Positions 4,283 through 25,557 of a stretch of DNA of 47,709 nucleotides are shown piece after piece (position 1 is the stretch's first letter; each line of letters opens with the position of its first letter). This DNA comes from a bacterium (GTDB taxonomy: Bacteria; Arandabacterota; Arandabacteria; Arandabacterales; JALGWA01): contig JASFEA010000005.1 of NCBI GenBank assembly GCA_050125095.1, positions 1-47,709 of the forward strand, read 5' to 3'. Both the position numbers and the translations under genes were made by a program. Below the pieces are notes generated by a model. That model searched no databases. It saw only the letters and a list, made by a program, of their open reading frames with translations, and was not told the origin of the DNA.

Positions 4283-7198
4283 ATGAGCATGGAAGTTCGC
4301 AGCATCAAGCTTATCTGCGTGATGCTCGTGATGGCCGGGTTGTTGGGGGCGCTTCCCTTGGTCGCAGGCGATATTCCGGGCCTGGAAGACAATATGAACA
4401 CCACGGAACACGTGGGCTACCGGGCCATAGTGCCCGAAAGGGATTTCCCGCCCTATAACCCGCCTGAAGCGGCATTCAACGGCACGCCCGAGCTCACGCC
4501 CGCGGAGATTCATGTGACTCTCCAGGCCGGCGAGTCATTCACGGAGAACAAGAATCTCTACATGCCGGAGTACCCCGTTCCCCCGAAGGCGGACATCGTA
4601 TTCATTCTGGATTTGACGGGGAGCATGACGGATGAGATCGACAGCATCAAGGTCCAGGTCATTGACATAATGACTGAGATCAGGGCGTTGGTCCCCGACT
4701 CCTACTTCGCCGTGATTTCCCACATGGACTACGACGGGGCATTCAGCTTCTGTCAGTACGCCGATACGTACGGCATGACAGGCGACTACCCTTACAGCCT
4801 CGACCAGGCCCTTACTTCTGACCTGACCAGCGTACAGACCGCTGTCAACGCGCTGACGATGGGCTCGGGCGTGGACGATCCCGAGTCCTATGCCAGATGC
4901 CTCGACGAGTGCATCAGCGACGGCGCAAACATCGGCTGGCGCGGCGGGGCCAAGAAATTCGTGGTGCAGTTCGGCGACAACGTCCCGCATGACTGCGACG
5001 TCTATGACTGCACCGGCGGCACCAGGACCACGGGGCGCGACCCGGGCAGGAACGAGACTTTGGATGACGCCGACGATGTCTTTATCATGGACGCCGTAAA
5101 TCAGCTCGCCGCCAACAATGTCTGTCTCATTCCCGTCTACAGCGGCATCAGCGACAACGAGTTCAATGAGTGGGACTGCTGGGCGGCCTTGACAGGCTGC
5201 CAGGCCTTCAGGCTCAACCCGGACGGCAGCGTGCCGGGCGAGTTCAACCTGGCGGAGTATATAGCAGACGCAATAGGCCAGGAGTTCGGCCACATCGACA
5301 TGCTAACGCTCATTGCCTGCGATCCGGCCTATGACGGCTGGCTCATCAGCGTTGTCCCGCCGTCCTATACGGATCTCGAACTCGACACTCCCCAGAACTT
5401 CGCGTTCACGATCGAGATCAAAGTGCCCGAGGGCACGCCGGAAGGGGAGTACTGCTTCGATATCTGCGCCGACGGCGACGGCGTGACCTACGCCACGCAG
5501 CAGGTATGTATAACGGTCAGGGAGTATGAGGACTGCATACATATCAATGTCGGCGAGGTCTGGGGCGAAGCAGGGGATGACATCCAGGTGCCCGTGTATA
5601 TCGAGGACATTACGGGCTGGGACATCATGGCCTTCGAGATGACGATTTGCTGGTGCGACGTCCCCGTGGGCCTCATCCAGTACGAGGGCTGCGAGGCCGG
5701 CGAGGTCATGGTGAATTCATATTGGATGGACCCCGCTTGCGGCGAATGCGCGCCGTTCTGCATAAGCGTTGCAGGGGCGGGCGGAATGCCGCTACAGGGC
5801 GGAGGCGTCCTGTTCTACCTCAATTTCCACATCAGCGACAACGCCAAGCCGGGCATGTGTTGCGAGATCTGCATCGAAGAGGCCCTTATTTACGATCCCG
5901 AAACGCCGCTCGAGGTCTGCACCGAATGCGGCTGGGTCTGCATCGAGAACTGCAGCATAGGCGGCTCGGTGTACTTCTGGTACTGCAGGTACGACCCGTG
6001 CTGCGGCTGGGAGCGCTACTGGCCGGTTCAGGGCGCGAGGATGCACCTTTCGGACTGCAATGGCGCGCTCATGACCCAGTACACGGGCGGCGACGGCAGA
6101 TACAGCTTCGGCCCGCTTGAGCCGCTTGAAGATTGCTTCTATTGCGTGGACATAGACTACTGCCCTATACCGATCCGCGCGATTACTGCATTCGACGCCT
6201 CGCTCATTCTGCAGTACGTGGTGTGCGAGTACCCGCTCGACATGTGCGCGTTCGATATCTGCGTCGACCAGGGCCTGCTTAGCGCGCAGACGGTCTACCC
6301 GCAGAAGATTGCGGCCAACACGAGCTGCTCGGGTGACATTACGGCTTACGACGCCTCGCTCATTCTGCAGTACGTCATCGGCGCGATACCCGCGTTCCCT
6401 TGCCCCGATCCGTGGGCATGGTTCTTACTCGACGACTGCAGCAATTGCACGGAGGAGTGCCCGCATGACTTCGACTGGGTCGGAGTACTGATCGGGGACG
6501 TGTCCGGGCCGATGGCCTCGACGCTCGAGGCGGCCGACGCGGCTAAGGCGAAGGTCGGAATCCCGAGGCATTATGACGACAAGGTCGAAGTGCCCATCCG
6601 TGTTGAGGGAGCGACCAATGTGTTCTCAATTGAGCTGGACCTCCAGTTCAACTCAAACGAGTTCCTGGTGGTAGATGTGGCCCCGGCCGGTATAGCAAGC
6701 GGCTTCATGGCCGGCTTCAACGTTCAGGGCAACGACCTCCTGATCGCCATGGCCGGCGCGTCGCCCATAAACGGCACGGGCAGAGTGTGCATGATCACCC
6801 TGCAGAAGCTGCGGCCGCACGTTCCGACGGCCAGCCCGCGCGTGGAGCTCGTGGACGGCATGTTCAACGAGGGCAATCCCGAGATGACCATCGTGCAGCA
6901 CAGCACGGGCAGGGAGATCTGGGGCATCGGGCTCGCTCCGGCGACGCCCAACCCGTTCACGAAGCAGACGGCTCTCAACTTCAGCCTGCCCCAGGAGGCG
7001 AACGTATCGCTGGCCATATATAATGTAAGCGGTCAGCGCGTGCGCACGCTCCACAGCGGCATGGCGTCGGCCGGCGACCACCAGGTAACCTGGGACGGTC
7101 TCGACGATGCAGGCGCAAGGGTGGCGAGAGGTGTCTACTTCGCCAGGATGGAATCGATGGGCTTCTCGGCCACTGAGAAGGTCGTCCTCTTGAATTAG
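4283..7198 (+). CDS. Secreted Cys-rich protein: integrin-beta-like VWA + cohesin + Ig-like/dockerin-like + cohesin + FlgD/T9SS-like C-terminal domain
   Basis: Signal peptide; DLTGSM MIDAS-like, DDPE, IGWR; cohesin-like [32 protein letters not shown] and [12 protein letters not shown] dockerin-like helices; PNPF...TWDGLDDAGARVARGVYF...KVVLL. Start 4280, 4283 or 4289. Confidence 0.85.
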   Translation: MSMEVRSIKLICVMLVMAGLLGALPLVAGDIPGLEDNMNTTEHVGYRAIVPERDFPPYNPPEAAFNGTPELTPAEIHVTLQAGESFTENKNLYMPEYPVPPKADIVFILDLTGSMTDEIDSIKVQVIDIMTEIRALVPDSYFAVISHMDYDGAFSFCQYADTYGMTGDYPYSLDQALTSDLTSVQTAVNALTMGSGVDDPESYARCLDECISDGANIGWRGGAKKFVVQFGDNVPHDCDVYDCTGGTRTTGRDPGRNETLDDADDVFIMDAVNQLAANNVCLIPVYSGISDNEFNEWDCWAALTGCQAFRLNPDGSVPGEFNLAEYIADAIGQEFGHIDMLTLIACDPAYDGWLISVVPPSYTDLELDTPQNFAFTIEIKVPEGTPEGEYCFDICADGDGVTYATQQVCITVREYEDCIHINVGEVWGEAGDDIQVPVYIEDITGWDIMAFEMTICWCDVPVGLIQYEGCEAGEVMVNSYWMDPACGECAPFCISVAGAGGMPLQGGGVLFYLNFHISDNAKPGMCCEICIEEALIYDPETPLEVCTECGWVCIENCSIGGSVYFWYCRYDPCCGWERYWPVQGARMHLSDCNGALMTQYTGGDGRYSFGPLEPLEDCFYCVDIDYCPIPIRAITAFDASLILQYVVCEYPLDMCAFDICVDQGLLSAQTVYPQKIAANTSCSGDITAYDASLILQYVIGAIPAFPCPDPWAWFLLDDCSNCTEECPHDFDWVGVLIGDVSGPMASTLEAADAAKAKVGIPRHYDDKVEVPIRVEGATNVFSIELDLQFNSNEFLVVDVAPAGIASGFMAGFNVQGNDLLIAMAGASPINGTGRVCMITLQKLRPHVPTASPRVELVDGMFNEGNPEMTIVQHSTGREIWGIGLAPATPNPFTKQTALNFSLPQEANVSLAIYNVSGQRVRTLHSGMASAGDHQVTWDGLDDAGARVARGVYFARMESMGFSATEKVVLLN

Positions 7199-7243
7199 TT
7201 TTGAAGTGGATTTGAAGTAGCAACAAGGAAGTTGCACTTTGGT

Positions 7244-7289
7244 GGACCGGGGTTCTAAGGGTAAGACCTGGAGCCCCGGTTCCGCTTTT
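7244..7289 (+). terminator. Intrinsic terminator
   Basis: GGACCGGGGTTCT...GGAGCCCCGGTTCC stem followed by GCTTTT. Confidence 0.65.
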
Positions 7290-7395
7290 CCCCTATTTCT
7301 GGCCTAATTCGTTGCCCCGTAGTGGATTATGAATATATCGCCCCGCCCGGGGTGAATTATTTTATATCCCATGCTTTTTGATATACCCCATTCAG

Positions 7396-7424
7396 TTGAC
7401 ATATCTCAATGCTTGTGATAAAAT
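7396..7424 (+). promoter_or_regulatory. Sigma70-type promoter for 7682 gene
   Basis: TTGACA-N17-TAAAAT with TG extension, AT-rich upstream. Confidence 0.7.
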
Positions 7425-7681: not shown

Positions 7682-10609
7682 ATGAAGCGGAGTACTTTTG
7701 GCAGGGTATACCTGTATACCCTGGTCGTGCTCTCGGTCGTGGCGGTCTCCGCGATAGGGATACTCGCCACTGAGGCTACCAATGACCAGGTAGCGGAGTA
7801 CCAGCCGGATGGAAACGGGTTCTGCCCGACGGTGCCCATGAGGGCTTATCCGGACTACCGGCCCGCGCCCGTGCTCGGGGGCGTTCCTCTGGGGGCGACC
7901 CTCACTCCCGAGTCACTGGACGTATGGCTGAGTCCGGGCGAGACATTCGTAGAGCAGAAGCTGCTGTGCATCCCCAAGGACGAGCTCCCCACGAAGGCGG
8001 ACATACTTATATGCTTCGACCTCACCGGGAGCATGGGGGGCGAGCTTGAAGAGGTCAAGAAGAACGCCATCGAAATAATGGAAGGCGTGAGGGCGATGGT
8101 GCCCGACACCTACTTCGGGGTGATCTCGCATAAGGACTATCCGGGCTCATACAGCGGTTGCGGCTATGGCGCCCAGTACGGCGATCCGGCGGACGGCGAT
8201 ACGCCATACTCGCTCAATATACCGCTGACGTCGAGCCTCTCCTCCGTGCACGGCACCATCAACGGGCTGTCGCTGGGCGACGGCTCGGACGCCCCGGAAT
8301 CCTACAGCCGGGCGCTTCACGCGGCCTGCACCGACGAAGGGATCGGCTGGCGCCGTGACGCCAAGAAGATCGTGCTGCAGTGGGGAGACAATGTTCCCCA
8401 TGACTGCAACTACGGCGACTGCAATGGGCTTCCCGGCACGACGGGCCCCGATCCGGGCCCCGACGGCATTGCGGGCAATGGCGACGATCTCGAGATCCTC
8501 GACGTCATCAATGCAATGGATGACGCCAGGATAACGCTGATCTCGATGTACAGCGGTCTTTCCATGAACAAGCTCAAGCTGTGGAACTGCCTGGCCAAGA
8601 GAACAGGCGGCGCGGCATTCGAGCTCAATACCGACGGCACGGTCGTGGGCGACGCCGACATTGCCGATTTCGTCGTCGACGTGATCGGCCAGCAGTTCAG
8701 GGAGATCCACTACCTCACTCTCGAGGCATGCGATCCCGACTTCGACGAATGGCTGGTCGACGTGGACCCGGATGCGTATGAAGACGTGGTGCTGGACGAT
8801 GACAAGTGTTTCGAGTTCACCATAACGCTTCAGGTGCCTGAGTTCACCGAGCCCGGCGACTACTGCTTCGAGATATGCGCGGTGGGCGATGCCGCCGTCT
8901 ACGCCAAGCAGAACGTGTGCATTCACGTGAGGCCGGACGAGTGCTTTGACATAGGCATCGGAGACGCGACGGGCAACGCCGGCGAGATCGTCCGCGTCCC
9001 CGTCACCATGCAGGAGACCGACGGCTGGGGGATTCACCTTGTCGACATAGACATATGCTGGTGCGCCGAGAAGGAATCGGCAATTTCGCTTGCGGGCTTC
9101 GCCCCGGGTTCGATGATGAGCGAGAACGACCTCGAAGTCAACGCGACCGGAACGGGGAGAAACTGCCTGAGCTTCGTGGCCAAGTCCGAGAAGGCGCTCA
9201 TAGGAAGCGGAACGCTCTTCTTCATCGACTTCCTCATAGCTCAGGACGCCGACCCGTGCGACTGCTGCGACGTCATTTTCGCGTCGGTCAACTTCGATAA
9301 TTCCCAATTCATTGAGATATGCCCCGTGGACGGCTCTGTCTGTCTCGAGAATTGCGCGATTGACGGCTATGTCCACAACTGGTACTGCACTGAAGGCCCT
9401 GTTCTCACAGACCCGCTGTTGGATGTCGAGCTCATCATCGATATGTGGTGCGGGATTCCCGAACTCGGCGATCCGCTTGCAACGGCCTATACCGACGAGA
9501 CGGGCTACTACCAGTTCGACTGCCTGGCGCCTCTCAACAACATCGACAATTCGCTGGACAGGGAATGGTGTGAGTACTGCGTCACCCCGGTTGACGTCGA
9601 GATGCCGGAAGGCTGGATAACGGCCTATGACGCGTCGCTCGTTCTCAGGTATCTAAACAGCGTTCACAATCTGGACAAGTGCCCATTCGCGCACCGCTAC
9701 GGCACGTCCTACCCGCAGAGGATCGCGGGCGACGTCAACTGCACGGAAACTCTGCAGGAGATGGACGCCACCCTGATTCTGCAGTATGTCGTCGGCCTTA
9801 TTACCGACTTCGCGTGCTGCGACGAGTTTGTCTTCGTGCCGGATATGATCTGCACGCCGGGCTGCCCGGACGCCCTCGACTTCATCGCGGTCTTGAAGGG
9901 CGATGTTTCGGGCCCGATGCCCGACCCGGTGCTGGAGGACGCGCACATCAAGGTCGGAATACCGAGGCATTACTACAATGGCGATGTCGGCTATGTCGAA
10001 GTGCCAATCAAGGTGAGAAACGCTCTCGAGATATTCTCGATAGAGTTCATGCTCGCCTACGACGAATCGAAGCTCACGGTGGAGTCTGTGGTCCCGGCAG
10101 GCATGGCCGGTTCGTATAGCTGCGTCTACAATGACCTGGGCGGCTCCATAAAAGTAGCGCTCGCGGGCTTCATGAGCTTCAGCGGCAGCGGCAGGATCGC
10201 GCTGGTGACGTTCAAGAAGAAGGACCATCGCGTGCCGATAGCGCATACCGAACTTACGCTCAACGAGGCCCTGTTCAACGAGGGCGATCCGCCGGCCGTC
10301 ATCGACGGGCATTCCTATGACGGCGAGATCGTGCGATTCTCGCTCGGCCCCGTGGCGCCCAATCCGTTTGCGGACGGGACGGTGATCGGTTTCAGCGCTC
10401 CGCAGGCTTCGCGCGTTGCGATCAAGATCTTCAACGTGAACGGCCAGGCCGTGCGGACGGTGATGAACGGCGGTGTCGAAGCGGGCTATCACCAGATAGG
10501 CTGGGACGGCCGCGACGACTCCGGCGCCAGGGTGGCCCGCGGAGTCTACTTCTGCAGAATGGAAGCAGGCGCGTTCTCGGCCACCGAGAAGCTCGTGTTC
10601 ATTAAATAG
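7682..10609 (+). CDS. Secreted Cys-rich VWA-cohesin-dockerin-cohesin-FlgD protein (paralog of 4283)
   Basis: [76 protein letters not shown]. Confidence 0.85.
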   Translation: MKRSTFGRVYLYTLVVLSVVAVSAIGILATEATNDQVAEYQPDGNGFCPTVPMRAYPDYRPAPVLGGVPLGATLTPESLDVWLSPGETFVEQKLLCIPKDELPTKADILICFDLTGSMGGELEEVKKNAIEIMEGVRAMVPDTYFGVISHKDYPGSYSGCGYGAQYGDPADGDTPYSLNIPLTSSLSSVHGTINGLSLGDGSDAPESYSRALHAACTDEGIGWRRDAKKIVLQWGDNVPHDCNYGDCNGLPGTTGPDPGPDGIAGNGDDLEILDVINAMDDARITLISMYSGLSMNKLKLWNCLAKRTGGAAFELNTDGTVVGDADIADFVVDVIGQQFREIHYLTLEACDPDFDEWLVDVDPDAYEDVVLDDDKCFEFTITLQVPEFTEPGDYCFEICAVGDAAVYAKQNVCIHVRPDECFDIGIGDATGNAGEIVRVPVTMQETDGWGIHLVDIDICWCAEKESAISLAGFAPGSMMSENDLEVNATGTGRNCLSFVAKSEKALIGSGTLFFIDFLIAQDADPCDCCDVIFASVNFDNSQFIEICPVDGSVCLENCAIDGYVHNWYCTEGPVLTDPLLDVELIIDMWCGIPELGDPLATAYTDETGYYQFDCLAPLNNIDNSLDREWCEYCVTPVDVEMPEGWITAYDASLVLRYLNSVHNLDKCPFAHRYGTSYPQRIAGDVNCTETLQEMDATLILQYVVGLITDFACCDEFVFVPDMICTPGCPDALDFIAVLKGDVSGPMPDPVLEDAHIKVGIPRHYYNGDVGYVEVPIKVRNALEIFSIEFMLAYDESKLTVESVVPAGMAGSYSCVYNDLGGSIKVALAGFMSFSGSGRIALVTFKKKDHRVPIAHTELTLNEALFNEGDPPAVIDGHSYDGEIVRFSLGPVAPNPFADGTVIGFSAPQASRVAIKIFNVNGQAVRTVMNGGVEAGYHQIGWDGRDDSGARVARGVYFCRMEAGAFSATEKLVFIK

Positions 10610-10804: not shown

Positions 10805-11581
10805 ATGTCTTTGAGAAAAGAAGTTCTAGCGGGTTTGTTTGCGGCAGGATTGCTTGTCGCTGCCACAGGGGCAGGCGCGATAGAGATGTCAATGCCCGAT
10901 ACTACGGCCGCCCGGGGCGAAACGCTGTATATTCCCGTATGGTCATCCGACCTGACGGACTCCAATGTCTATTCCTACCAGTTCATCATGTCCTATGATT
11001 CAGCGTTCGTGAAGATAGTCGACGTGTCAAACGACGGCTCGATCACGGACGTGCCCCCATGGCTGGGCCCGGCTTGGCATATAAGAGAGGGAGAGGACTC
11101 CCTCAGGGTTGCGTCGGCCGGGGTTGAGCCGCTCTCAGGCGAGGGGCTGTTCGTTCTCATAGGCCTGGAAGTGCTGGCCACGGCGCCTGCCGACTCGGGC
11201 ATATACCTCGACCTGCATGACTTCGTGTTGAATGAGGGCGTGCCCGGCGCGGTCCCCGACGGCGGGTGGCTATTCATCGGCTCCGCCGGTGTCGAGCCGG
11301 TCCGCGGAGACTCGGGCGGCCCGGTGAGACTTGAAAGGCTGTCCTCCACTTCCGTGCGCTGGCATCTGGCTGACGCGGATACGCATGACTCGCGCCTCGA
11401 GATATACGATGCTTTCGGCAGGTTCGTGGCCTCGGTGCGGCCCGCCGCGGCGGACGACGCCGTAGCTTTCACCTGGGAAGGCAGGAACTCTGGAGGCGGC
11501 GCCGTCTCCGGCGGGGTTTACTTCTACAAGCTGACGTCGGGCGAGAAGCAATACAGCGGTAAAGTCTGCATCCTGAAGTAA
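10805..11581 (+). CDS. Secreted single-cohesin protein with FlgD-like C-terminal domain
   Basis: Signal peptide; GETLYIPV..DL...VYSYQF.MSYD...LRVASAG..PLSGEG (cohesin-like); IYDAFGRFV...FTWEGRN..G.AVSGGVYFYKL. GGAGG RBS. Confidence 0.75.
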   Translation: MSLRKEVLAGLFAAGLLVAATGAGAIEMSMPDTTAARGETLYIPVWSSDLTDSNVYSYQFIMSYDSAFVKIVDVSNDGSITDVPPWLGPAWHIREGEDSLRVASAGVEPLSGEGLFVLIGLEVLATAPADSGIYLDLHDFVLNEGVPGAVPDGGWLFIGSAGVEPVRGDSGGPVRLERLSSTSVRWHLADADTHDSRLEIYDAFGRFVASVRPAAADDAVAFTWEGRNSGGGAVSGGVYFYKLTSGEKQYSGKVCILK

Positions 11582-11764: not shown

Positions 11765-11794
11765 TTGACATCCTCATCTCAATCATGATACAAT
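11765..11794 (+). promoter_or_regulatory. Sigma70-type promoter for 11932 gene
   Basis: TTGACA-N18-TACAAT with TG extension. Confidence 0.6.
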
Positions 11795-14971: not shown

Positions 14972-15000
14972 TTGACACAATTCACTATATCTGATATACT
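14972..15000 (+). promoter_or_regulatory. Sigma70-type promoter (conserved cassette promoter 1)
   Basis: TTGACA-N17-TATACT; context TTTGACA...TCTGRTATACTGC shared by five genes. Confidence 0.8.
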
Positions 15001-15091
15001 GCCGCCGCTGTTTTAAAGGACCGGGCTTGGGGTCAAAGGACGGGTCTACTTCCCGGTCATAAGAGCAGACTCAGACTCACTCCTCATTTGC

Positions 15092-15192: not shown

Positions 15193-16953
15193 ATGCTGCG
15201 CAGATCAGCGCTTATCTTTGCCGCGGTTCTTCTCGCCGTCGGTCTGGCTGCGCCCGCGTTCTCGGCTGAGACCGGCGGCAAGCTGGATGATTGCATTTCC
15301 ATACGTATAGGCGACATCATCGCCGACCCGGGCGAGGACATCTCCGTGCCGGTTTACCTTTCGGACGTGACCGGCTGGGGCGTAATGGCCTTCGAGCTGG
15401 AGATATGCTGGTGCGAACTCCCGGCGGGGCTTCTCCAGTACGTGCGATGCAGGCCCGGCGAAATTCTTACCAATGCTGTGGGCTGGGGGCCGCCCGTCTG
15501 CGGTCAATGCGGGCCCAACTGTGTGGATATTGCGGACGCCGGCGCTTTTGCCCTGGAAGGCAGCGGCGTGCTGTTATATCTCGACTTCCATATAAGCGCC
15601 AACGCCAAGCCGTGCATGTGTTGTGAACTGTGGTTCGAGGAGGTCAACCTGTACGATCCGGAAGACCCGCTCAATGTCTGTGGCAGCGGAGGCGAGGTCT
15701 GCATAGACTGGTGCGACATCAGCGGGACCATCATGGCCTGGTACTGCGCCTACGATGGCTGCGGCGACCTGTTCCGCACTACGCCGCTCCCCGGGGTCCG
15801 CGTGCACCTGTACCAGTGTGATGAACCCGTCGCCACTACTTACACCGACGATGCGGGCAAGTTCCTGTTCGAATGCATGCCGCCCCTTCCCATCCCGGGC
15901 GAGAAAGAAGTCTGTCCCTACTGCGTCGAGATAGACTACTGCGCGGTGCCGCGCGGCCTGATTACGGCATTCGACGCCGCCATCGTACTCAAGTATCTCG
16001 TGTGCTTGGACGACCTCATGTGCTGCCCCATCTTCCAGTGCGGCGACTGGGTGTACCCGCAGATGGTGGCTGCGGACGTGAACTGCACGGATGTTATCAC
16101 CGCCTATGACGCGTCCCTCATTCTGCAGTATGTAGTGGGCCTCATCCCGGCATTCCCGTGCCCGGACATGTGGAGCTGGTACTTCGCGCTCTGCCGGAAT
16201 TGCGAGCATTACTGCCCGGCCGGCTTTGGAATAACAGGGGTCCTCAAGGGCGACGTATCGGGATACTGCTATCGTGATGCCCCGGTTCTCACGGGAGCCT
16301 CGCCCGAGATCGAGCTGGGGATTCCGAGGCACTTCGGCGATTATGTCGACGTGCCCGTCAGCGTGAAAAACGCGACTGACATTCACTCGGCGCAGTTCGA
16401 AGTGACTTATAATGAAAGGGACTTCGCCGTCATAAGCGTCGAGACGGCGGGGCCCGCCAGCGGCTTCCTGTCGGCGTTCAACGCCGACGGCGGCAGCCTG
16501 CTCGTGGCCATGGCTAGCTCATCGAGCTTCAGCGGAAACGGCGACATAGCCGTGATACGGCTCAAGAAGAAGCATGCGCCCATACCGACGGCCTCCACGC
16601 GCATGGAGATGGCAAGCGCTCTCTTGAATGAGACGGCGCCAGCCATCGACAAGAAGCCGCGCGACGCGGAAATCGTGCGGTTCGGGCTCGGGCCTATATC
16701 GCCCAACCCGTTCACCGACGACGCCGTTATCGCCTACAGCGCGCCTTCGAGCTCGGGCCTCTCAATCGGTATCTACGATGTGAATGGCCGCCTCATACGC
16801 GCCCTGCGAAGCGGCGGGGTCAGCGCCGGCACCCATCAGGTGACCTGGGACGGCCGGGACGAAAACGGCGTCAGGGTGGCCAGGGGCGTCTACTTCTGTC
16901 GCATGAACGCCGGCGAGTTCAGCGCCACCGAGAAGGTGGTATTGCTTAAATAG
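15193..16953 (+). CDS. Secreted Cys-rich cohesin-dockerin-cohesin-FlgD protein
   Basis: Signal peptide; [80 protein letters not shown]. Confidence 0.85.
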   Translation: MLRRSALIFAAVLLAVGLAAPAFSAETGGKLDDCISIRIGDIIADPGEDISVPVYLSDVTGWGVMAFELEICWCELPAGLLQYVRCRPGEILTNAVGWGPPVCGQCGPNCVDIADAGAFALEGSGVLLYLDFHISANAKPCMCCELWFEEVNLYDPEDPLNVCGSGGEVCIDWCDISGTIMAWYCAYDGCGDLFRTTPLPGVRVHLYQCDEPVATTYTDDAGKFLFECMPPLPIPGEKEVCPYCVEIDYCAVPRGLITAFDAAIVLKYLVCLDDLMCCPIFQCGDWVYPQMVAADVNCTDVITAYDASLILQYVVGLIPAFPCPDMWSWYFALCRNCEHYCPAGFGITGVLKGDVSGYCYRDAPVLTGASPEIELGIPRHFGDYVDVPVSVKNATDIHSAQFEVTYNERDFAVISVETAGPASGFLSAFNADGGSLLVAMASSSSFSGNGDIAVIRLKKKHAPIPTASTRMEMASALLNETAPAIDKKPRDAEIVRFGLGPISPNPFTDDAVIAYSAPSSSGLSIGIYDVNGRLIRALRSGGVSAGTHQVTWDGRDENGVRVARGVYFCRMNAGEFSATEKVVLLK

Positions 16954-17075: not shown

Positions 17076-17104
17076 TTGACAAAGTTTATAGTTTCTGATA
17101 TACT
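17076..17104 (+). promoter_or_regulatory. Sigma70-type promoter (cassette promoter 2)
   Basis: TTGACA-N17-TATACT. Confidence 0.8.
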
Positions 17105-17193
17105 GCAATTCGTTGCGAGAGCCGGAGATATGGGACTGCGGCAGTCCCGTATTGCCCGGTCTCGCAAAAGACACTCAATAACTCCTCAATCGT

Positions 17194-17285: not shown

Positions 17286-19067
17286 ATGCAAAGGAGATCA
17301 GCCCTTCTGCTCGCTGCGGTGGTAATCGCGGTGAGCTTTGCTCTGCCCGCGTACTCCGCCGAGAGCGGCGGGACGCTGGATGACTGTCTCCATATGAACA
17401 TCCCGTCTCTGACGGCCAATCCCGGCGAGGACATAACCGTCCCGGTGTACATCTCTGATGTGACCGGATGGGGCGTGATGGCGTTTGAAGTGGAGATATG
17501 CTGGTGCGAGCTGCCTGCGGGCCTTCTCCAGTATGTGGGATGCAAGCCCGGTATGATGATGCACGACGCCAACTGGTCCATTTCATGCGGGGCCTGCGGC
17601 CCGAATTGCATCAGCGTGGCCGGCGCCGGCGCCGTCCCGCTCAACGGATCGGGACCGCTCTTCTATCTCTATTTCCACGTGAGCGCCAACGCCAAGCCTT
17701 GCATGTGCTGCGACATATGGTTCACCGAGATCAATTTGTATGATCCCGAGGACCCGCTCAATGTCTGCTGGAGGGACGGCGAGATCTGCATCGAGCACTG
17801 CGACGTCTACGGGGCCACCTTCACATGGTGGTGCACTTACGGCGACTGCGGCGAAGTCCGCTTCGAATACCCGCTTCCGGGTGTGAGGGCCCATGTCTCG
17901 CGCTGCGGCGAGCCCATCGCCACCGATTACACCGACGCGCGGGGCCTTGTCGCGTTTGAGTGCCTCGAGCCACTGCACAACAACGACGGCGGCCTTATCG
18001 ATTGCGGCTACTGCATGACCGTGGACTACTGCCCCATTCCGCGTGAATGGATCAACCCGTTCGACGCGGCCCTCATTCTCCAGTACCTGGTGTGCACCGA
18101 ACAGCTCGACTGCTGCGCCTTCCCGTACTGCAATGACCCGAGTCTGGGGGGAGGCATGGTGTACCCGCAGAGGATCGCGGCCGACGTCAACTGCACTAGC
18201 GTGATCACGGCGTATGACGCGTCGCTCATCCTCCAGTATGTAGTCGGCCTGATTCCCGCGTTCCCGTGCCCCGACCCGTGGGTCTGGGAACCCATAATCT
18301 TCTGCGATGAGTGCCAGGAAGTCTGCCCGGCGTATTTCTTCTTCTTGGGCATACTCAAGGGCGACGTATCGGGCATGTGTTACCGCCCGGACGAGACCCC
18401 CACGCTGGCTGCGACCTCGACGGTCAAGCTGGGCGTGCCCAAGCACTTCGACGGCTACGTGGAAGTTCCCGTCAAGGTCAAACATGCGGACAATGTCTAC
18501 TCGACCCAGTTCGAGGTCACCTACAATGCGGGTGACTTCGACGTGACGCAGGTGCGCGGCTCGGGCCTCGGAGCGGGCATGATGACGGCTTACAACGCCG
18601 ACAACGGCAATTTGCTGATCGCCATGGCGGGCTCCACGCCCTTCAGCGGCAACGGCACGGTTGCCACGGTCACGCTTCAGAAGAAGCACACGCCGATACC
18701 CGTGGCGTCTACGCGCTTGGAGCTGACGAGCGCGCTCCTCAACGAGACCGCTCCGGTGATCGAGGGCCATGAGTACGATGGCGAGGTGGTTCGTTTCGCG
18801 CTGGGCCCGGTATCGCCTAACCCGTTCAGGGACGCTGCTGTCATAAGTTACAGCGCTCCGAAGGCGGCGAGCGTATCGATCGGCGTCTATGACGTGAACG
18901 GGCGGCTGGTACAGACGGTATACAGCGGCCAGGTGGAAGCCGGCGCGCATCAGGTTACCTGGGACGGTAAAGACACCTCCGGATCCAGGGTAGCCAGAGG
19001 CGTGTACTTCTGCCGCATGAGTGCTGGAGAGTTCAGCGCCACCGAGAAGATGGTGTTACTCCAGTAG
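17286..19067 (+). CDS. Secreted Cys-rich cohesin-dockerin-cohesin-FlgD protein
   Basis: Same motifs as the 15193 gene; AGGAGG RBS; about 30 Cys in the N-terminal ~365 aa. Confidence 0.85.
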   Translation: MQRRSALLLAAVVIAVSFALPAYSAESGGTLDDCLHMNIPSLTANPGEDITVPVYISDVTGWGVMAFEVEICWCELPAGLLQYVGCKPGMMMHDANWSISCGACGPNCISVAGAGAVPLNGSGPLFYLYFHVSANAKPCMCCDIWFTEINLYDPEDPLNVCWRDGEICIEHCDVYGATFTWWCTYGDCGEVRFEYPLPGVRAHVSRCGEPIATDYTDARGLVAFECLEPLHNNDGGLIDCGYCMTVDYCPIPREWINPFDAALILQYLVCTEQLDCCAFPYCNDPSLGGGMVYPQRIAADVNCTSVITAYDASLILQYVVGLIPAFPCPDPWVWEPIIFCDECQEVCPAYFFFLGILKGDVSGMCYRPDETPTLAATSTVKLGVPKHFDGYVEVPVKVKHADNVYSTQFEVTYNAGDFDVTQVRGSGLGAGMMTAYNADNGNLLIAMAGSTPFSGNGTVATVTLQKKHTPIPVASTRLELTSALLNETAPVIEGHEYDGEVVRFALGPVSPNPFRDAAVISYSAPKAASVSIGVYDVNGRLVQTVYSGQVEAGAHQVTWDGKDTSGSRVARGVYFCRMSAGEFSATEKMVLLQ

Positions 19068-19238: not shown

Positions 19239-19267
19239 TTGACAAGGAAACATTCTTCTGATATACT
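19239..19267 (+). promoter_or_regulatory. Sigma70-type promoter (cassette promoter 3)
   Basis: TTGACA-N17-TATACT. Confidence 0.8.
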
Positions 19268-19381
19268 GCACGCGCAAGTTGCGAGAGGCAACCGGGGCAA
19301 GATACGGGGCGATTTAGCGGGGCTTCCAGTTCGCTGCTGGTGGTAAAGCCTCATAGAGGCGTTTAATATATTCCACTGCGC

Positions 19382-19467: not shown

Positions 19468-21237
19468 ATGAGACGAATTCTGGTTCTTATGGCAGCCGTG
19501 CTCGTGGCGGGTGGCGTTGCCATACCTGCCTTTGCGGCTGAAACGGGGGGCCAGCTCGACGACTGCATCCATGTCCACATCGGCAACGTCATCGCCAACC
19601 CTGGTGAGGATATACAGGTGCCGGTCACTATCTCCAATGTCACCGGCTGGGGTGTAATGGCTTTCGATATGGAGATATGCTGGTGCGAACTTCCCGCAGG
19701 GCTCCTGCAGTTCACGGACTGCTCCCCTGGCGAGGTCGTCCTTAGCTCCGGCTGGATGCTGGGAGCCTGCGGCATGTGCGGTCCCAACTGCGTGACGGCG
19801 GTGGCTGCCGGCGCAACTCCACTGATTGGTGAGGGCGTTCTCTTCTATCTCAACTTCCACGTGAGCGCAAATGCCAAGCCCTGCATGTGCTGCCAGCTGT
19901 GTTTCGAGGAAGTCAATCTCTACGATCCTGAAGAGCCGCTCAACGTATGCGCGTATTGCGGCGAGGTCTGCATAGACTACTGCTCGGTCAAGGGCCAGAT
20001 CACCGCCTGGTACTGCAGGGAGGGCCCCTGTGAGGATGTCCATTACATGCCTCAGGAGGGTGTGAGGGTCCACCTTTCGCAGTGCGATGAGGCCATAGCC
20101 AGCACATATACGGACTCTGACGGCTTGTTCATGTTCGACTGCCTCGATCCTCTGGACGGCGTCCAGACCTTGCAGCCCTGCCCTTACTGCCTCGAACTCG
20201 ATGATTGCGCGGTTCCTCGCGCTCTGATCAATGCGTTCGACGCGTCGCTTATCTTGAGGTACCTGGTGTGCATGGACTATCTGACCTGCTGCGCCTTCGA
20301 CTACTGCGACGATTGCGACAAGCCAGGCATGGTCTACCCCCAGCAGGTAGCAGCCGATGTCAACTGCACCGGCATGATCACGGCGTATGACGCGTCGCTC
20401 ATACTGCAGTTCGTGGTGGGGTTGATTCCGGCATTCCCGTGCCCGACCAATTGGGTATGGTACTGGATGGACTGCTTCGATGGGTGCACATATGACTGCC
20501 ATACCTCGGTATGGGCCATCGGCGTTCCCAAGGGCGACGTCTCGGGTTACTGCTACGCCGGAGGCGGGAAACTTGCGTTGACCACGCCCACGGTCAAGCT
20601 GGGTATTCCAGAGCACTTCGACGGTTACGTGGAAGTCCCCGTGATGGTTAAGAATGCGGAGAACATATACTCCACGCAGTTCGAAGTCGAATACAACGCA
20701 GGCGACTTCGACGTGACGCAGGTGACTGGCGTCGGTCTGGGTAGCGGCATGATGACCGCATACAACGCCGACAACGGCAACCTCCTGATCGCCATGGCGG
20801 GCTCATCGCCCTTCAGCGGCAGCGGCAAGGTGGCGAAAGTAACGCTTCAGAAGAAGCACACGCCTATACCTGTCGCTTCAACGCGCATGGAGATCACGGG
20901 CGCGCTTCTCAATGAGGCCGAGCCCGTGATAGAGGGCCATCAGTACGATGGTGAGGTCGTTCGCTTCGCGCTGGGCCCGGTATCGCCCAACCCGTTCAGG
21001 GACGCTGCAGTGATCAGCTACAGCGCTCCCCAGGCGGCCAGCGTGACGATCGACGTCTATGACGTTAACGGCAGGCTGGTACAGACGGTGTACAACGGCC
21101 AGGTGGAAGCCGGCGCGCATCAGGTAACCTGGGACGGCCGCGACAGCGCGGGCGACAAGGTTGCCAGGGGCGTGTACTTCTGCCGCATGAGTGCTGGAGA
21201 GTTCAGCGCGACCGAGAAGATGGTGCTGCTCCAGTAG
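19468..21237 (+). CDS. Secreted Cys-rich cohesin-dockerin-cohesin-FlgD protein
   Basis: Same motifs as paralogs; AGGAGGT RBS before ATG 19468 (in-frame ATG 19405 also exists). Confidence 0.85.
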   Translation: MRRILVLMAAVLVAGGVAIPAFAAETGGQLDDCIHVHIGNVIANPGEDIQVPVTISNVTGWGVMAFDMEICWCELPAGLLQFTDCSPGEVVLSSGWMLGACGMCGPNCVTAVAAGATPLIGEGVLFYLNFHVSANAKPCMCCQLCFEEVNLYDPEEPLNVCAYCGEVCIDYCSVKGQITAWYCREGPCEDVHYMPQEGVRVHLSQCDEAIASTYTDSDGLFMFDCLDPLDGVQTLQPCPYCLELDDCAVPRALINAFDASLILRYLVCMDYLTCCAFDYCDDCDKPGMVYPQQVAADVNCTGMITAYDASLILQFVVGLIPAFPCPTNWVWYWMDCFDGCTYDCHTSVWAIGVPKGDVSGYCYAGGGKLALTTPTVKLGIPEHFDGYVEVPVMVKNAENIYSTQFEVEYNAGDFDVTQVTGVGLGSGMMTAYNADNGNLLIAMAGSSPFSGSGKVAKVTLQKKHTPIPVASTRMEITGALLNEAEPVIEGHQYDGEVVRFALGPVSPNPFRDAAVISYSAPQAASVTIDVYDVNGRLVQTVYNGQVEAGAHQVTWDGRDSAGDKVARGVYFCRMSAGEFSATEKMVLLQ

Positions 21238-21435: not shown

Positions 21436-21464
21436 TTGACAAAGCGCATAAATTCTGATATACT
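21436..21464 (+). promoter_or_regulatory. Sigma70-type promoter (cassette promoter 4)
   Basis: TTGACA-N17-TATACT. Confidence 0.8.
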
Positions 21465-21547
21465 GCAAACCTGGTGCGAAAGTATTTCGGCGCCGGGGGC
21501 GCTCACACGCCCTCCGGGCACCGTAAGACTAGTATCTCCTTTTTTAC

Positions 21548-21566
21548 GTGGGGCTTGGAAAGGAGG
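21548..21566 (+). promoter_or_regulatory. Conserved 5'-leader motif copy 4 (variant)
   Basis: GTGGGGCTTGGAAAGGAGG(TGA). Confidence 0.7.
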
Positions 21567-21645: not shown

Positions 21646-23421
21646 ATGATACGGAGACTGGGTTTACTGTTTATTGTCTCCGTTCTCGCGATGTCGGCCA
21701 TGGGAGCGCCGGCCTATTCGAGTGAGAACGGCGGACAACTCGATGATTGTATTCATGTCTCGGTTTACAGTGTCAAGGACGCGAGGCCGGGTACCGACAT
21801 CTTCGTGCCGGTCGTGATCTCAGAAGTCACGGGCTGGGGCATCCTCGCCTTTGAAATGGAGATCTGCTGGTGCGATATCCCGGCCGGGCTTCTCCAGTAC
21901 GTGGAGTGCGCGCCGGGCCCGGTGATGGAGAACTCGGGCTGGATGCCGCCCATCTGCAATCCATGCGCCCCAAATTGCATAAGCATCGCTGCCGCAAGCC
22001 CCATGCCGCTTATGGGTAACGGTCCGCTTTTCTACCTTAAGTTCCATGTAAGCGCAAACGCAAAGCCCTGCATGTGCTGCGACATCATGTTCGAGGACGT
22101 CAAGCTCTATGACCCCGAGGACCCGCTGAATGCATGCGTACAGAACGGGGTGGTCTGCATAGATTATTGCGATGTAATAGGCGTGCTGAAGCACTGGCTT
22201 TGCTTCTACGACCCCTGCGAGGGCTGGTACCGCGGGCTCGGGCTCCCGGGCGCCAGAGTGCACCTCTGGGATTGCCACGGTCCGGTGGCCAGCGAATACA
22301 CTGACAATATGGGATACTTCAGTTTCCAGTGCCTCGACCCGCTTGACGTCCAGGCTGCAGAGGGCGGGCAGGACTGCTACTACTGCGTCGGCATCGACTA
22401 CTGCGCTATTCCGCGCGGCTGGATAACCGCGTATGACGCCTCGCTGATCCTGCAGTATCTTGTTTGCGCCGACGGCCTGCAGGATTGCTACTTCACGCTC
22501 AACGGCGGCGGCATTTACCCGCAGCAGGTCGCGGCTGACGTTAACTGCACCGGCGTGATAACCGCCTACGACGCCGCGCTTATACTGCAGTACATCGTAG
22601 GCATGCTGCCGACGTTCCCGTGCCCCGATATGTGGGTCTACTATGTGATGGACCCGGGAAGCTGCACGTTCACCTGTCCGGCATTCATTGAGTTTGTCGG
22701 GATTCTCAAGGGCGACGTGTCGGGTCCGCCGGTCGGGGGCGGCGAGTTGCTGGCGGTGCCTACGGCGTACATGAAACTCGGCGCAGCCATACCGCAGGGA
22801 GACTATATCGACATACCGGTCCTCGTTGAGGACGCCACAGACGTGTTCGCGGCCGAGTTCGAGATGACTTTCGACAATGAGCGCTATTCCTTTGTCGATG
22901 TCATACCCGTGGGCTTGGGAAGCGGCTTCTTCCTGAGCGCGCGCGAAGAGGACGGCCATGTCTTCACCGCGATGGCCAGGGCTACGAGCTTCACCGGGAG
23001 CGGCAGACTTGCCAAAATCAGGCTGGAGAGGATTCCGGGGTCGATGCCCGGGGCGACGCTGCGGCCCAGCCTGGCGGCCGCCATGTTGAATGAGGGCATA
23101 CCGGAGGTCGAGATCATAACGCGGGGGACCATTCCCATCGCCGAGGAATTCCGGCTCGGACCGGTTTCGCCCAATCCGTTCAGCCAGGGCACTATGATTA
23201 CATTCAGCGCGCCCGGGGCGACCGAGGTGGCCATAGATATATATAATGTGCACGGCCAGGTCGTGCGCTCGGTCTTCAGCGGCACCGCCGACGCAGGCCG
23301 GCATGAAGTGGCCTGGGACGGCACCGACAGCCGCGGGTCAAGAGTGGCGAGAGGCGTCTATTTCTGCCGCATGCACACGGGCAATTTCAGCGCCACAGAG
23401 AAGATAGTGGTACTTCAGTAA
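21646..23421 (+). CDS. Secreted Cys-rich cohesin-dockerin-cohesin-FlgD protein (divergent C-terminal half)
   Basis: Same N-terminal and dockerin-like motifs; second cohesin more diverged; GAGGAGG RBS. Confidence 0.85.
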   Translation: MIRRLGLLFIVSVLAMSAMGAPAYSSENGGQLDDCIHVSVYSVKDARPGTDIFVPVVISEVTGWGILAFEMEICWCDIPAGLLQYVECAPGPVMENSGWMPPICNPCAPNCISIAAASPMPLMGNGPLFYLKFHVSANAKPCMCCDIMFEDVKLYDPEDPLNACVQNGVVCIDYCDVIGVLKHWLCFYDPCEGWYRGLGLPGARVHLWDCHGPVASEYTDNMGYFSFQCLDPLDVQAAEGGQDCYYCVGIDYCAIPRGWITAYDASLILQYLVCADGLQDCYFTLNGGGIYPQQVAADVNCTGVITAYDAALILQYIVGMLPTFPCPDMWVYYVMDPGSCTFTCPAFIEFVGILKGDVSGPPVGGGELLAVPTAYMKLGAAIPQGDYIDIPVLVEDATDVFAAEFEMTFDNERYSFVDVIPVGLGSGFFLSAREEDGHVFTAMARATSFTGSGRLAKIRLERIPGSMPGATLRPSLAAAMLNEGIPEVEIITRGTIPIAEEFRLGPVSPNPFSQGTMITFSAPGATEVAIDIYNVHGQVVRSVFSGTADAGRHEVAWDGTDSRGSRVARGVYFCRMHTGNFSATEKIVVLQ

Positions 23422-23446
23422 GAAACAGTGTATTCGGAGTGATGCC

Positions 23447-23556: not shown

Positions 23557-23585
23557 TTGACAAAGGTTGATAATTCTGGTATACT
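23557..23585 (+). promoter_or_regulatory. Sigma70-type promoter (cassette promoter 5)
   Basis: TTGACA-N17-TATACT; extra TTGACA at 23545-23550. Confidence 0.8.
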
Positions 23586-23673
23586 GCATTCCCGGTGCGA
23601 TACGGGGTATGGCTGCAAGGCTCAATAACCCGAGGAGACACCTGTAATATAGGCTCTTAGCAACCTCCACAGC

Positions 23674-23692
23674 GTGGGGCAAAGGAAGGAGG
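23674..23692 (+). promoter_or_regulatory. Conserved 5'-leader motif copy 5
   Basis: GTGGGGCAAAGGAAGGAGG(TGA). Confidence 0.75.
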
Positions 23693-23784
23693 TGAAGTGG
23701 GAATTGCGATGCTATCCCGCCTGGAGGTCGATTCTAAACCTTTGTCTTTTGAAAGAACGTAGAATTAAGGGAGGGGGAGTAAAC

Positions 23785-25557
23785 ATGTCTAAAGGACTAA
23801 TGACAACTCTTCTTGCCGGGCTCATCGTGGTGAGCTTCCTCTTCGCCCCGGGTGCTTATGCTGCTGAAAGCGGCGGCACACTGGATGATTGCATTCACAT
23901 GTCCATAGGGAATGTGAAGGGGATGCCCGGCGAAGACATTATGGTTCCGGTCCTGATATCCGACGTTACGGGCTGGGGCGTAATGGCAATGGAAATGACC
24001 ATCTGCTGGTGCGAGCTGCCCGCAGGGCTCATTCAGTTCGAGGGCTGTGAAGGCGGCGAGGTCGTCGAGAACTCACAATGGTTCCTGGGCGAGTGCGGAA
24101 CATGCGGTCCCAACTGCGTTACGGCAGCTGCGGCCGGCGCGACGCCGCTCGTGGGCGGGGGCGTTCTCTTCTACCTCAAGTTCCACGTAAGCGCCAATGC
24201 CAAGCCCTGCATGTGCTGCGAAATCCGGTTCGAGGAAGTCTATCTCTACGACCCGGAAGATCCGCTCAACGTGTGCATCACGAACGGCGAGGTCTGCGTG
24301 CCCCACTGCGACATCTACGGCCGGGTGGTGCACTGGTGGTGCGAGCAGGAGCCGTGCGGAGACTGGATAATGCCGTATCCCATCCCGGGCGCGCGCGTCC
24401 ATCTCTGGGATTGCCACGGTTCGGTGGCGACTGACATCACCGATACCGACGGCCTGTTCGCCTTCGAGTGCCTGTATCCGCTTCTCGACAATAACGGCCA
24501 GCCCGTCACGCCCGACTGCTACTATTGTTTCGACGTGGAGCATTGCGCGCTTCCGAGCAGGCTGGTTACGCCGTACGACGCGTCGCTGATTCTGCAGTAT
24601 CTTGTCTGCACGAACGGCCTCAGCAATTGCGTGTTCAATCACTGCGGATACAACGTTTACCCGCAGCAGGTGGCGGCCGATGTCAACTGTACGGGCATGA
24701 TCACGGCTTATGACGCCTCGCTCATACTGCAATACGTAGTCGGCCTGATTCCTGCATTCCCGTGCCCGGATCCCTGGGTCTGGTACAGGTTCCCGTGCGG
24801 CGGGTGCCTGGTAGACTGCTCGCCGAACATGAAAGTCGGCATTGTCGGCCTGATCAAGGGCAACGTGTCGGGCAAGCCCGTTCTGACCACCACCCTCGTT
24901 CCCACGGCGACGGTCAAGCTGGGTGTGCCCAAGCACTTCGACGGCTACGTTGAAGTTCCCGTCAAGGTCAGGAACGCCGACGCCGTCTACTCGACCCAGT
25001 TCGAGGTCGCCTACAACGCCAGCGACTTCGACGTGACACAGGTGGTCGGCTCCGGTCTCGGAGCGGGCATGATGACCGCCTATAACGCCGAAAGCGGCAA
25101 CCTCCTGATCGCAATGGCGGGCTCGTCGCCCTTCAGCGGCGACGGCACGGTTGCCGTGGTCACGCTTCAGAAGAAGCATACGCCGCTGCCTGTGGCTTCC
25201 ACACGCGTGGAGCTGACGAGCGCGCTCCTGAACGAGACCGAACCGGCCATAGAGGGTCATCACTACGAAGCGGAAATCGTGCGCTTCGCCCTCGGCCCGG
25301 TATCGCCCAATCCGTTCAGGGACGCCGCGGTCATAAGTTACAGCGCCCCCCAGGCGGCCAGCGTATCGATAGATATCTATGATGTAAACGGCCGGCTGGT
25401 ACAGACGGTCTACAGCGGCCAGGCGGAAGCCGGCGCGCATCAGGTAACCTGGGACGGCCGCGACAGCGCGGGCGACAAGGTTGCCAGGGGCGTGTACTTC
25501 TGCCGCATGAGCGCCGGGGAGTTCAGCGCCACCGAGAAGATGGTGATGCTGCAGTAG
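23785..25557 (+). CDS. Secreted Cys-rich cohesin-dockerin-cohesin-FlgD protein
   Basis: Same motifs as paralogs; GGAGGGGGAG RBS. Confidence 0.85.

Follow-up and report, generated by a model that had tools for sequence, protein, structure and literature searches.

Among the natural 'plug and socket' devices by which protein complexes are put together outside cells, cohesin and dockerin modules are the best known, and, to our knowledge, nearly all experimental studies of them deal with Gram-positive bacteria that degrade cellulose. What do such modules do where they occur in a long series of neighboring genes without a recognizable enzyme? The question is raised by a 47,709-nucleotide stretch of DNA, hereafter called the window, from a bacterium of the Arandabacterota (GTDB order Arandabacterales, JALGWA01; positions 1 to 47,709 of the forward strand of contig JASFEA010000005.1, assembly GCA_050125095.1). 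An earlier note, made from the sequence alone, described here nine genes for cohesin/dockerin proteins (g1 to g9) and proposed that their products polymerize into a branched, disulfide-stabilized matrix or coat. The observation of a nine-gene array was confirmed, and its interpretation was partly supported. As argued below, the array proteins probably clip together at the cell surface, possibly by a dockerin relative of one molecule fitting into one of the two cohesin types of another.

Modular composition of the array proteins

Nine open reading frames (ORFs), all on the + strand, occupy positions 4280-25557 of the window. The array is real and has the limits given to it earlier, with the start of g1 at 4283 and the stop of g9 at 25557. 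Eight of the nine proteins align over their full shared length, with 40-62% identity to g5, and the ninth, g3, aligns with the last cohesin and the tail only. The modules of the eight follow each other in a fixed order, referred to here as the cassette: cohesin-1, an immunoglobulin (Ig)-like module, a dockerin-like module, cohesin-2, and a tail of the type recognized by type IX secretion systems (T9SS). Each of the 32 cassette ORFs found in the window and in seven related species known as metagenome-assembled genomes (MAGs) keeps this order. Both Pfam and profile comparisons thus bear out the description of eight paralogs with two cohesins, a dockerin-like module and a tail, plus one single-cohesin gene, but the Ig-like module had to be added to it, and the mechanically called ORFs overrun the true starts.

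Both cohesins are well supported. The Pfam family Cohesin (PF00963) scored above its cut-off of 24.1 bits in eight of the nine proteins, the exception being g4 (20.7 bits), and two Cohesin stretches were found in seven of the nine. Profiles of the modules were also built from family members and compared with all solved structures in the PDB. All 15 matches of the cohesin-1 profile at E ≤ 0.1 were cohesins (best 3ul4_A, E 3.9e-8), as were all nine matches of the cohesin-2 profile (best 2xdh_A, E 4.1e-11). A quick tree built from 56 modules separates cohesin-1 from cohesin-2 as two types of old origin. On its cohesin-1 side, the g3 cohesins make up a clade of their own, and g3 was aligned with cohesin-1 by hhalign at a probability of 96.9%. 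In g6, g7, and g9, the DNA encoding cohesin-2 and the tail (18400-19067, 20570-21237, and 24890-25557) is 78-94% identical, against 46-81% for the part encoding cohesin-1, the Ig-like module, and the dockerin, with the switch at the linker between dockerin and cohesin-2; the 3' halves of these genes look like the product of gene conversion.

The dockerin-like module is less easily recognized. Pfam Dockerin_1 (PF00404), with a cut-off of 22.9 bits, reached 13.9-17.5 bits in g5, g7, g8, and g9 and gave no match in g1, g2, g4, and g6. However, a dockerin-only profile of 30 sequences gave 19 matches in the PDB at E ≤ 10, the best being 4uyq_B/4uyp_B (E 4.5e-9), and its named or aligned matches are dockerin modules or cellulosomal enzymes, two chains called 'Serine protease' being excluded from this statement. 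The dockerin assignment of the earlier note thus fell short in the family scan and was upheld by comparison with solved dockerins. The module does not consist of two F-hand repeats that each have a calcium loop and a helix. In the second repeat, the calcium-loop and helix residues are invariant among the 30 sequences, and the first, which is degenerate, keeps the helix and Asp12 but has residues other than Asp/Asn at loop positions 1, 3, and 5 (alignment A5). Since the first loop lacks Asp/Asn there and, of the two repeats, HMMER aligns just the second to solved dockerins, the module is a relative of dockerins in which one calcium site at most is intact. Of the distant relatives, 50 were scanned, and in 15 of them the module at this position scores high enough for the Dockerin_1 cut-off; a strict regular expression for canonical calcium loops was too strict to be informative for distant relatives. 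The linker after the dockerin contains an invariant G-x-x-x-G-D-V-x-G stretch in all paralogs (window 16237-16263, residues 349-357 of g5), which resembles the first part of another dockerin-type loop that lacks its helix.

The Ig-like module between cohesin-1 and the dockerin gave CarboxypepD_reg matches below cut-off. Its position recalls the X-module-dockerin pair of type II systems. Together, cohesin-1, the Ig-like module, the dockerin, and the linker contain 26 conserved cysteines in ~310 residues, and cohesin-2 contains none. The idea that the loss of the first dockerin loop is special to this Cys-rich clade was dropped, as eight printed low-Cys relatives look similarly reduced.

Could the modules have lost their binding function and serve as beta-sandwich and helical spacers in variable surface adhesins or antigens? 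The degenerate first dockerin repeat with its low Pfam scores, the fast divergence of cohesin-2 (mean pairwise identity 0.44), and the gene conversion in g6, g7, and g9, which is typical of variable surface protein families, would all fit such spacers. They are difficult to reconcile with the second dockerin repeat and cohesin-1 being the most conserved parts of the proteins (mean pairwise identities of 0.64 and 0.62, respectively), with the invariance of the calcium-loop and helix residues in 30 sequences, and with the existence of five paralogs made of these modules alone. We consider this explanation improbable.

The tail is of the kind that had been suspected. FlgD_ig scored above cut-off in all nine proteins, and Por_Secre_tail (PF18962) reached at least 27 bits in g5-g9 and 22-23.8 bits in g1, g2, and g4. 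A scan with the NCBIfam model of the T9SS type A sorting domain (TIGR04183, cut-off 23) covered three of the nine proteins and gave 32.5 bits for g1, 33.1 for g5, and 18.9 for g3. The N-termini, assessed by eye, are typical signal peptides after each proposed start; the proteins thus combine an N-terminal signal peptide with a C-terminal sorting domain, the signature of T9SS type A cargo. Because of this sorting tail, the organism would be a diderm.

Heads, enzymes, and relatives

Only g1, g2, and g4 carry an additional head; g5-g9 are head-less. Pfam Integrin_beta and VWA_4 matched these three heads below cut-off only, with Integrin_beta scores of 22.1, 21.8, and 13.9 bits against a cut-off of 24.8 bits, and 24.6 bits for the head alone. 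A profile of eight heads gave 59 matches in the PDB at E ≤ 1, and the 29 best (E ≤ 1e-5) were all integrin beta-8 or beta-3 chains. The best E-values ranged from 6e-7 to 1e-5, and the alignment extended over the strand before the beta-I domain and the metal-ion-dependent adhesion site (MIDAS) region. The motifs D-x-T-G-S and D-x-P-E-S and a later G-D are invariant (alignment A7). The three heads noted earlier thus appear to be VWA-type and, more specifically, integrin-beta-I-like.

No catalytic family was found by Pfam at E ≤ 0.1 in any of the nine proteins, and no glycoside hydrolase or carbohydrate-binding module (CBM) in these proteins or in the rest of the window, which sets the array apart from a cellulosome. 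The array is therefore enzyme-free, as the earlier note had it, but the family is not. A word-based search yielded 111 close homologs at E ≤ 2e-89, none of them informatively named, with the next match at 1e-16. Full-length relatives were found in 23 loci of the seven MAG species, one of which is titled Candidatus Eisenbacteria and six 'bacterium'. Six of the eight cassette paralogs (g1, g2, g4, g5, g7, and g8) pair one-to-one with an ortholog in two related MAGs, with gene order kept in loci L022 and L005, and the paralogs are thus old and maintained. In five further loci, a g3-type gene for a cohesin with a tail directly follows a cassette gene. Among the 32 cassette ORFs, some have no head, eight have a VWA head, and seven have another head, i.e., HYR in five, DUF11 in one, and no known family in one. 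One of the HYR heads also contains Peptidase_C10, and sub-threshold matches among these other heads were to an M43/M12-like peptidase with PKD (one) and to BNR (one). A scan of 36 long members gave weak VWA matches in seven, HYR in six, DUF11 in two, and Peptidase_C10 and BNR in one each; one member is named M6-like by one source.

The class extends far beyond these species. A profile running from cohesin-1 through cohesin-2, compared with representatives of 1.84 billion proteins, gave 12,844 matches at E ≤ 1e-3, 3,881 at E ≤ 1e-10, and 299 at E ≤ 1e-30. Among the best 138, which were parsed, the dockerin is flanked by cohesins in 74, and about 20 are poly-cohesin proteins, mostly with a tail. 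In a subset of 50 proteins, the heads include Peptidase_C1, Peptidase_M10, VWA, FG-GAP/ASPIC, CBM9, beta-helix, sortilin/BNR, PKD, and CARDB. According to source names and Atlas clusters, there are relatives in Ca. Stahlbacteria, the 'FCB group', Bacteroidales, Bacteroidota, Latescibacterota, and Fidelibacterota. Given the proteases and the HYR, BNR, and beta-helix heads that relatives carry on the same cassette, the latter appears to be a general display module.

Some neighborhoods and relatives deserve separate mention. In loci L008 (3439-5878) and L021 (12793-15181), a cassette gene and a g3-type gene are followed by a gene for a DNRLRE/CBM96 protein and, further on, a histidine kinase gene, and L008 also encodes a weakly BamG-like beta-barrel protein; this neighborhood is absent from the window. 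In locus L015 of MAG GMC4.maxbin2.282, a tail-bearing Peptidase_C25 of the gingipain/PorU family (15679-18324, - strand; 194 bits) is encoded at a distance of 4 kb from a cassette gene; with the PorU model it scores 67.8 bits, well short of the cut-off of 420. Three Saprospiraceae MAGs (L025, L026, and L030) encode a protein with an AhpC/TSA redoxin head, a dockerin-like segment, and Por_Secre_tail; the display of a thiol peroxidase on such a C-terminal part is unexpected.

Possible partners of the dockerin

A search with the dockerin alone gave 166 matches, and of the 120 listed, 106 have E ≤ 4e-10, every one of these being a cassette protein or a fragment of one cut off by a contig end. No separate enzyme with a Cys-type dockerin was present among these 120 of the 166 matches of the word-based search, and no stand-alone dockerin ORF in the window or in the flanks of the related loci L001-L023. 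As the carriers of Cys-type dockerins that were found are cassette proteins only, binding of cassette to cassette is the simplest reading.

These searches also bear on classical enzyme recruitment, in which the cassette proteins and g3 would be the scaffoldins (adaptor and anchoring) of a complex resembling a cellulosome, probably a proteolytic one, with its dockerin-bearing enzymes encoded elsewhere in the genome. Systems of this kind have been proposed for Planctomycetes (PMC6461901) and Cloacimonadota (PMC8542988). Moreover, the array has a surplus of cohesins, 17 against eight dockerins, and relatives attach proteases to the cassette. However, these enzymes are fused to the cassette and not docked, the secreted proteases encoded next to cassette genes in L013 (5182-7242) and L015 (15679-18324) carry the tail directly, without a dockerin, and the listed dockerin matches contained no separate protein with a dockerin of this type. 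Recruitment of separate enzymes is hence quite unlikely.

A second indication comes from co-variation. Across 111 sequences (6105 pairs), the divergence of the dockerin correlates with that of cohesin-1 (r 0.80, partial 0.70) more than with that of the adjacent Ig-like module (r 0.62, partial 0.22) or of cohesin-2 (r 0.56, partial 0.34). That the two cohesins are distinct and that cohesin-1 is the one to co-vary with the dockerin argues against two equivalent receptor sites. A third indication is P0145, a scaffoldin-like relative from the representative library, which consists of a signal peptide, eight tandem Cys-rich repeats of the cohesin-1 type, ~150 amino acids without a match, and a tail. 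Its repeats are 36-41% identical to cohesin-1 of g5 and fall inside the cohesin-1 clade of the 56-module tree (SH-aLRT 97). As it has no dockerin of its own, it offers receptors only. The restriction of the dockerin to cassette proteins, its co-variation with cohesin-1, and P0145 together point to cassette-to-cassette binding.

Co-variation within a chain, however, fits binding in cis and homotypic binding in trans equally, and so does a rigid module order over deep divergence. In a cis-clasped stalk, the dockerin would bind a cohesin of its own protein, or be packed and disulfide-stapled against cohesin-1 and the Ig-like module, giving a rigid monomer that holds up a head but builds no scaffold. 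The invariance of the module order in the 32 cassette ORFs and in distant relatives agrees with this, and so do the cysteines. After removal of the signal peptide and the tail, their number is even in six of the eight paralogs. The pairs C86-C103, C141-C228, C244-C337, and C106-C190 are always lost together, although in only two independent events each, and C283-C334 are lost together in 5-6 of six events. Two of these pairs (C141-C228 and C106-C190) link cohesin-1 to the Ig-like module, and C244-C337 brackets the dockerin. As a map of disulfides, co-loss is suggestive only. A cis stalk would leave the cohesin-only protein g3, its five orthologous neighbors, and P0145 without a ligand, and in the head-less proteins, which are five out of eight, it would have nothing to carry. 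The small number of independent losses behind each pair also counts against it, and we consider the stalk as a whole doubtful.

The paired losses and the mostly even number of cysteines fit internal disulfides rather than a cross-linked matrix. The intermolecular disulfides that had been proposed to stabilize the polymer thus found no support. Alternatively, the CWC, CxCC, and CxxxC clusters could bind a metal or perform thiol chemistry outside the cell. The density of conserved cysteines is high, the organism appears to be an anaerobe with genes for a membrane-bound hydrogenase adjoining the array, and the dockerin, cohesin, and tail part has Saprospiraceae relatives with redoxin heads. However, 65 of the 74 representatives with a dockerin between cohesins have less than 3.3% Cys. 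Since these low-Cys relatives keep the same cassette, the cysteines are an add-on, and their paired loss and mostly even number also plead against a metal or redox function, which is very improbable.

Several other points weigh against binding in trans. Dockerin_1 remains below its cut-off in every paralog of the window, and at most one calcium site is left in the module. The dockerin search depends on shared five-residue words and can miss divergent dockerins. The co-variation statistic is descriptive, the sequences being related to one another, and the correlation for cohesin-2 is lowered by gene conversion in this module. With more than twice as many cohesins as dockerins in the array, many cohesins cannot be occupied. 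P0145, a protein of the representative library, may stem from a genome of another lineage. Finally, no T9SS core gene such as SprA/Sov, PorV, PorU, or GldKLMN was seen in the 47.7-kb window or in ~10 kb of the flanks of relatives.

Even so, the best explanation overall, which we regard as quite possible though short of likely, is that the cassette proteins are held at the surface and that trans binding between dockerin and cohesin-1 joins them into a coat or display scaffold. In such a mechanism, the proteins would be exported via the Sec system and delivered to the cell surface, where the tail would hold them. The Ig-dockerin pair of one molecule would bind a cohesin of the cohesin-1 type in another cassette protein or in g3, with calcium in the one intact dockerin loop. 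The resulting non-covalent chains or patches would form the coat or scaffold, with the VWA heads, or proteases or other heads in relatives, at its outer end. Cohesin-2 would be an older, separate, and faster-changing type of cohesin. The ~26 cysteines of cohesin-1, Ig-like module, dockerin, and linker would form internal disulfides that stiffen this part, and no bridges between subunits.

A bolder version, rather unlikely in our view, would make the cassette a general self-polymerizing display platform of many uncultured diderms. Each dockerin would plug into the cohesin-1 of the next subunit, and calcium-dependent chains, or a coat, would be built in this way on the outer membrane; proteins like g3 and P0145 would act as nucleators or anchors, and cohesin-2 would offer a second, variable docking site. 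In the organism studied here, the product would be a coat resembling a surface layer (S-layer), made of head-less, highly expressed, disulfide-hardened paralogs and studded with integrin-like adhesive heads.

Gene starts and expression signals

The coordinates of genes, modules, and putative expression signals are collected in Table 1. The likely starts, which are the first positions given for the nine genes, each have a GGAGG-type ribosome-binding site. Near-consensus promoters lie inside the mechanically called ORFs of g4 and g8, and the real starts are therefore further downstream. Both cohesin-1 and the dockerin of g2 are divergent.

Table 1. Positions, in the window, of the array genes with their modules and of putative expression signals.
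Feature	Position	Strand	Remarks
g1	4283..7198	+	Signal peptide; integrin-beta-like VWA head ~4370-5515; cohesin-1 5516-5956; Ig 5957-6148; dockerin-like module 6149-6424; cohesin-2 6536-6919; tail 6929-7195
g2	7682..10609	+	VWA head; cohesin-1 8924-9358; dockerin 9587-9838; cohesin-2 9935-10333; tail 10340-10606
g3	10805..11581	+	Signal peptide; one Cys-free cohesin of the cohesin-1 type ~10871-11260; tail 11318-11578
g4	11932..14817	+	VWA head; cohesin-1 13174-13608; dockerin 13798-14046; cohesin-2 14149-14538; tail 14548-14814
g5	15193..16953	+	Head-less; cohesin-1 15274-15717; Ig 15718-15927; dockerin 15928-16182; cohesin-2 16297-16677; tail 16684-16950
g6	17286..19067	+	Head-less cassette protein
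g7	19468..21237	+	Head-less cassette protein
g8	21646..23421	+	Head-less cassette protein
g9	23785..25557	+	Head-less cassette protein
Promoter-like site, g1	3941..3969	+	10/12 consensus matches; TG before -10 hexamer
Promoter-like site, g2	7396..7424	+	11/12 consensus matches; TG
Promoter-like site, g4	11765..11794	+	11/12 consensus matches; TG; inside mechanically called ORF
Promoter-like site, g5	14972..15002	+	
Promoter-like site, g6	17076..17106	+	
Promoter-like site, g7	19239..19269	+	
Promoter-like site, g8	21436..21466	+	Inside mechanically called ORF
Promoter-like site, g9	23557..23587	+	One mismatch to shared pattern; found separately
Leader motif, head-less gene	15092-15110	+	19 nt
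Leader motif, head-less gene	17194-17212	+	19 nt
Leader motif, head-less gene	19382-19400	+	19 nt
Leader motif, head-less gene	21548-21566	+	19 nt
Leader motif, head-less gene	23674-23692	+	19 nt
Terminator-like hairpin	7338-7355		After g1
Terminator-like hairpin	10632-10660		After g2; + strand
Terminator-like hairpin	17002-17018		After g5
Terminator-like hairpin	19102-19131		After g6
Terminator-like hairpin	21272-21302		After g7

Each of the eight large genes is preceded by a near-consensus, TG-extended promoter. A scan for such sites found 16, against 7.9 expected by chance, and the seven best precede g1, g2, and g4-g8. Five of the large genes are followed by terminator-like hairpins, and all nine proteins are acidic, with isoelectric points of 4.1-4.5. 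Counted as signs of high expression, the acidity, the promoters, and the hairpins suggest that these are abundant surface proteins.

The long 5' leaders of the head-less genes contain a motif of 19 nucleotides that ends in the perfect Shine-Dalgarno-like sequence AAAGGAGG. With up to three mismatches, it was found 14 times in the window and the loci L001-L005, L011, and L022, in three species, always on the gene strand and 164-199 nucleotides before the start of the cohesin-1 coding sequence; 0.01 matches would be expected in the window by chance. The copy at 15092-15110 belongs to g5. Rfam matched neither the motif nor any other part of the window (0 matches in all). A riboswitch or attenuator was considered and rejected, since no secondary structure was supported: covariation was nearly absent, and the consensus energies were -3.1 and -1.56 kcal/mol. 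Possibilities are a standby site for ribosomes, a protein-binding site, or an element that affects mRNA stability.

Genomic context

The array is flanked by ordinary chromosomal genes. Upstream are genes for a methyltransferase, a DUF302 protein, and a PAS protein. Directly 3' of the array lies an operon (26001-38407, + strand) for a group-4-like, membrane-bound NiFe hydrogenase with Mrp-type antiporter subunits and a HycI protease, which points to an anaerobic, fermentative life. It is followed by genes for an alkaline phosphatase, glutamine synthetase, and two further proteins with the same T9SS-type tail (42985-46215 and 46385-47689, both on the - strand). The latter two gave no other match in Pfam, PDB, or PHROGs and have neither cohesin nor dockerin.

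Several Atlas clusters of proteins resembling g5 are labeled 'Viruses 97-100%, Uroviricota'. The context of the array is chromosomal, and the label probably reflects the classification of contigs. With 0 PHROGs families for g1, g3, g5, and the two other tail-bearing proteins, the viral labels give no reason to think of a phage.

Relation to known systems

The earlier note considered the array a candidate for an undescribed system. This is too strong, since cohesin-dockerin systems not devoted to cellulose have been proposed in Planctomycetes, Cloacimonadota, and anaerobic methanotrophic (ANME) archaea (PMC6461901; PMC8542988; PMC9012536). The 'planctosome' proposed for the Nemodlikiaceae, Planctomycetes, has an adaptor with a signal peptide, a dockerin, HYR, and a cohesin and is associated with peptidase activities (PMC6461901). 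It resembles the array family in being a non-cellulolytic system of a diderm and in the combination of HYR and peptidases, which are found as heads in relatives of the array proteins. However, its enzymes have separate dockerins and it is anchored by a lamin tail (PMC6461901), whereas in the array and its relatives a fixed cassette that ends in a T9SS-type tail carries the heads as fusions, no enzyme is present in the array itself, and no separate carrier of the dockerin was found in our searches. Both systems are predictions only.

Ca. Stygibacter (Cloacimonadota) encodes a scaffoldin of 3755 amino acids with tandem cohesins, CBMs, and a C-terminal sorting domain, as well as enzymes with C-terminal dockerins, from which a surface complex for the use of proteins and polysaccharides was inferred (PMC8542988). 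Here, too, a cohesin protein of an uncultured bacterium ends in a conserved C-terminal sorting domain, but the array has cohesins and dockerin in the same chain, and eight paralogs of it. In ANME archaea, scaffoldin-like proteins with one dockerin and up to five cohesins occur without cellulose degradation (PMC9012536). They differ from the array proteins in their archaeal origin, in lacking a T9SS-type tail, and in their variable architecture; a fixed cassette is not reported in the available text (PMC9012536).

Cohesin and dockerin also occur in one protein in Amy4 of the amylosome of Ruminococcus bromii. Its dockerin was measured to bind the cohesin of the same protein, and multimerization or aggregation was inferred by the authors (PMC4611034). 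Amy4 differs in being an amylase of a Gram-positive bacterium with one cohesin and a C-terminal dockerin, whereas the array proteins, known from sequence alone, have an internal dockerin, two cohesins, and no enzyme. ScaB of Acetivibrio cellulolyticus, one of the adaptor scaffoldins known from cellulosomes, likewise combines cohesins and a dockerin in one chain, and its dockerin (4uyq_B, 4uyp_B) is the best PDB match of the dockerin profile. However, it belongs to a cellulolytic Gram-positive bacterium with glycoside hydrolases and S-layer-homology anchoring, none of which is found in the array or the window. In the available part of a 2025 review on cellulosomes, Gram-negative bacteria are mentioned only for engineered display (PMC12484212). 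Our literature search found no paper on this cassette, on cohesin/dockerin or T9SS in Eisenbacteria, or on dockerin/cohesin in Latescibacteria. Thus, the array seems best called a self-contained family of cohesin-dockerin surface proteins on a T9SS-type tail, of a kind that is known but hypothetical.

The proteins of the array are members of a large class, as yet unnamed, that combines one plug and two sockets in a single chain before an outer-membrane sorting tail, with varied heads. If the dockerin binds in cis, the cassette would be a new kind of rigid stalk. If it binds in trans, the class would represent a widespread way in which diderms build coats and display adhesins and proteases, and protein engineers would gain a compact scaffold that assembles by itself and is made stable by disulfides.

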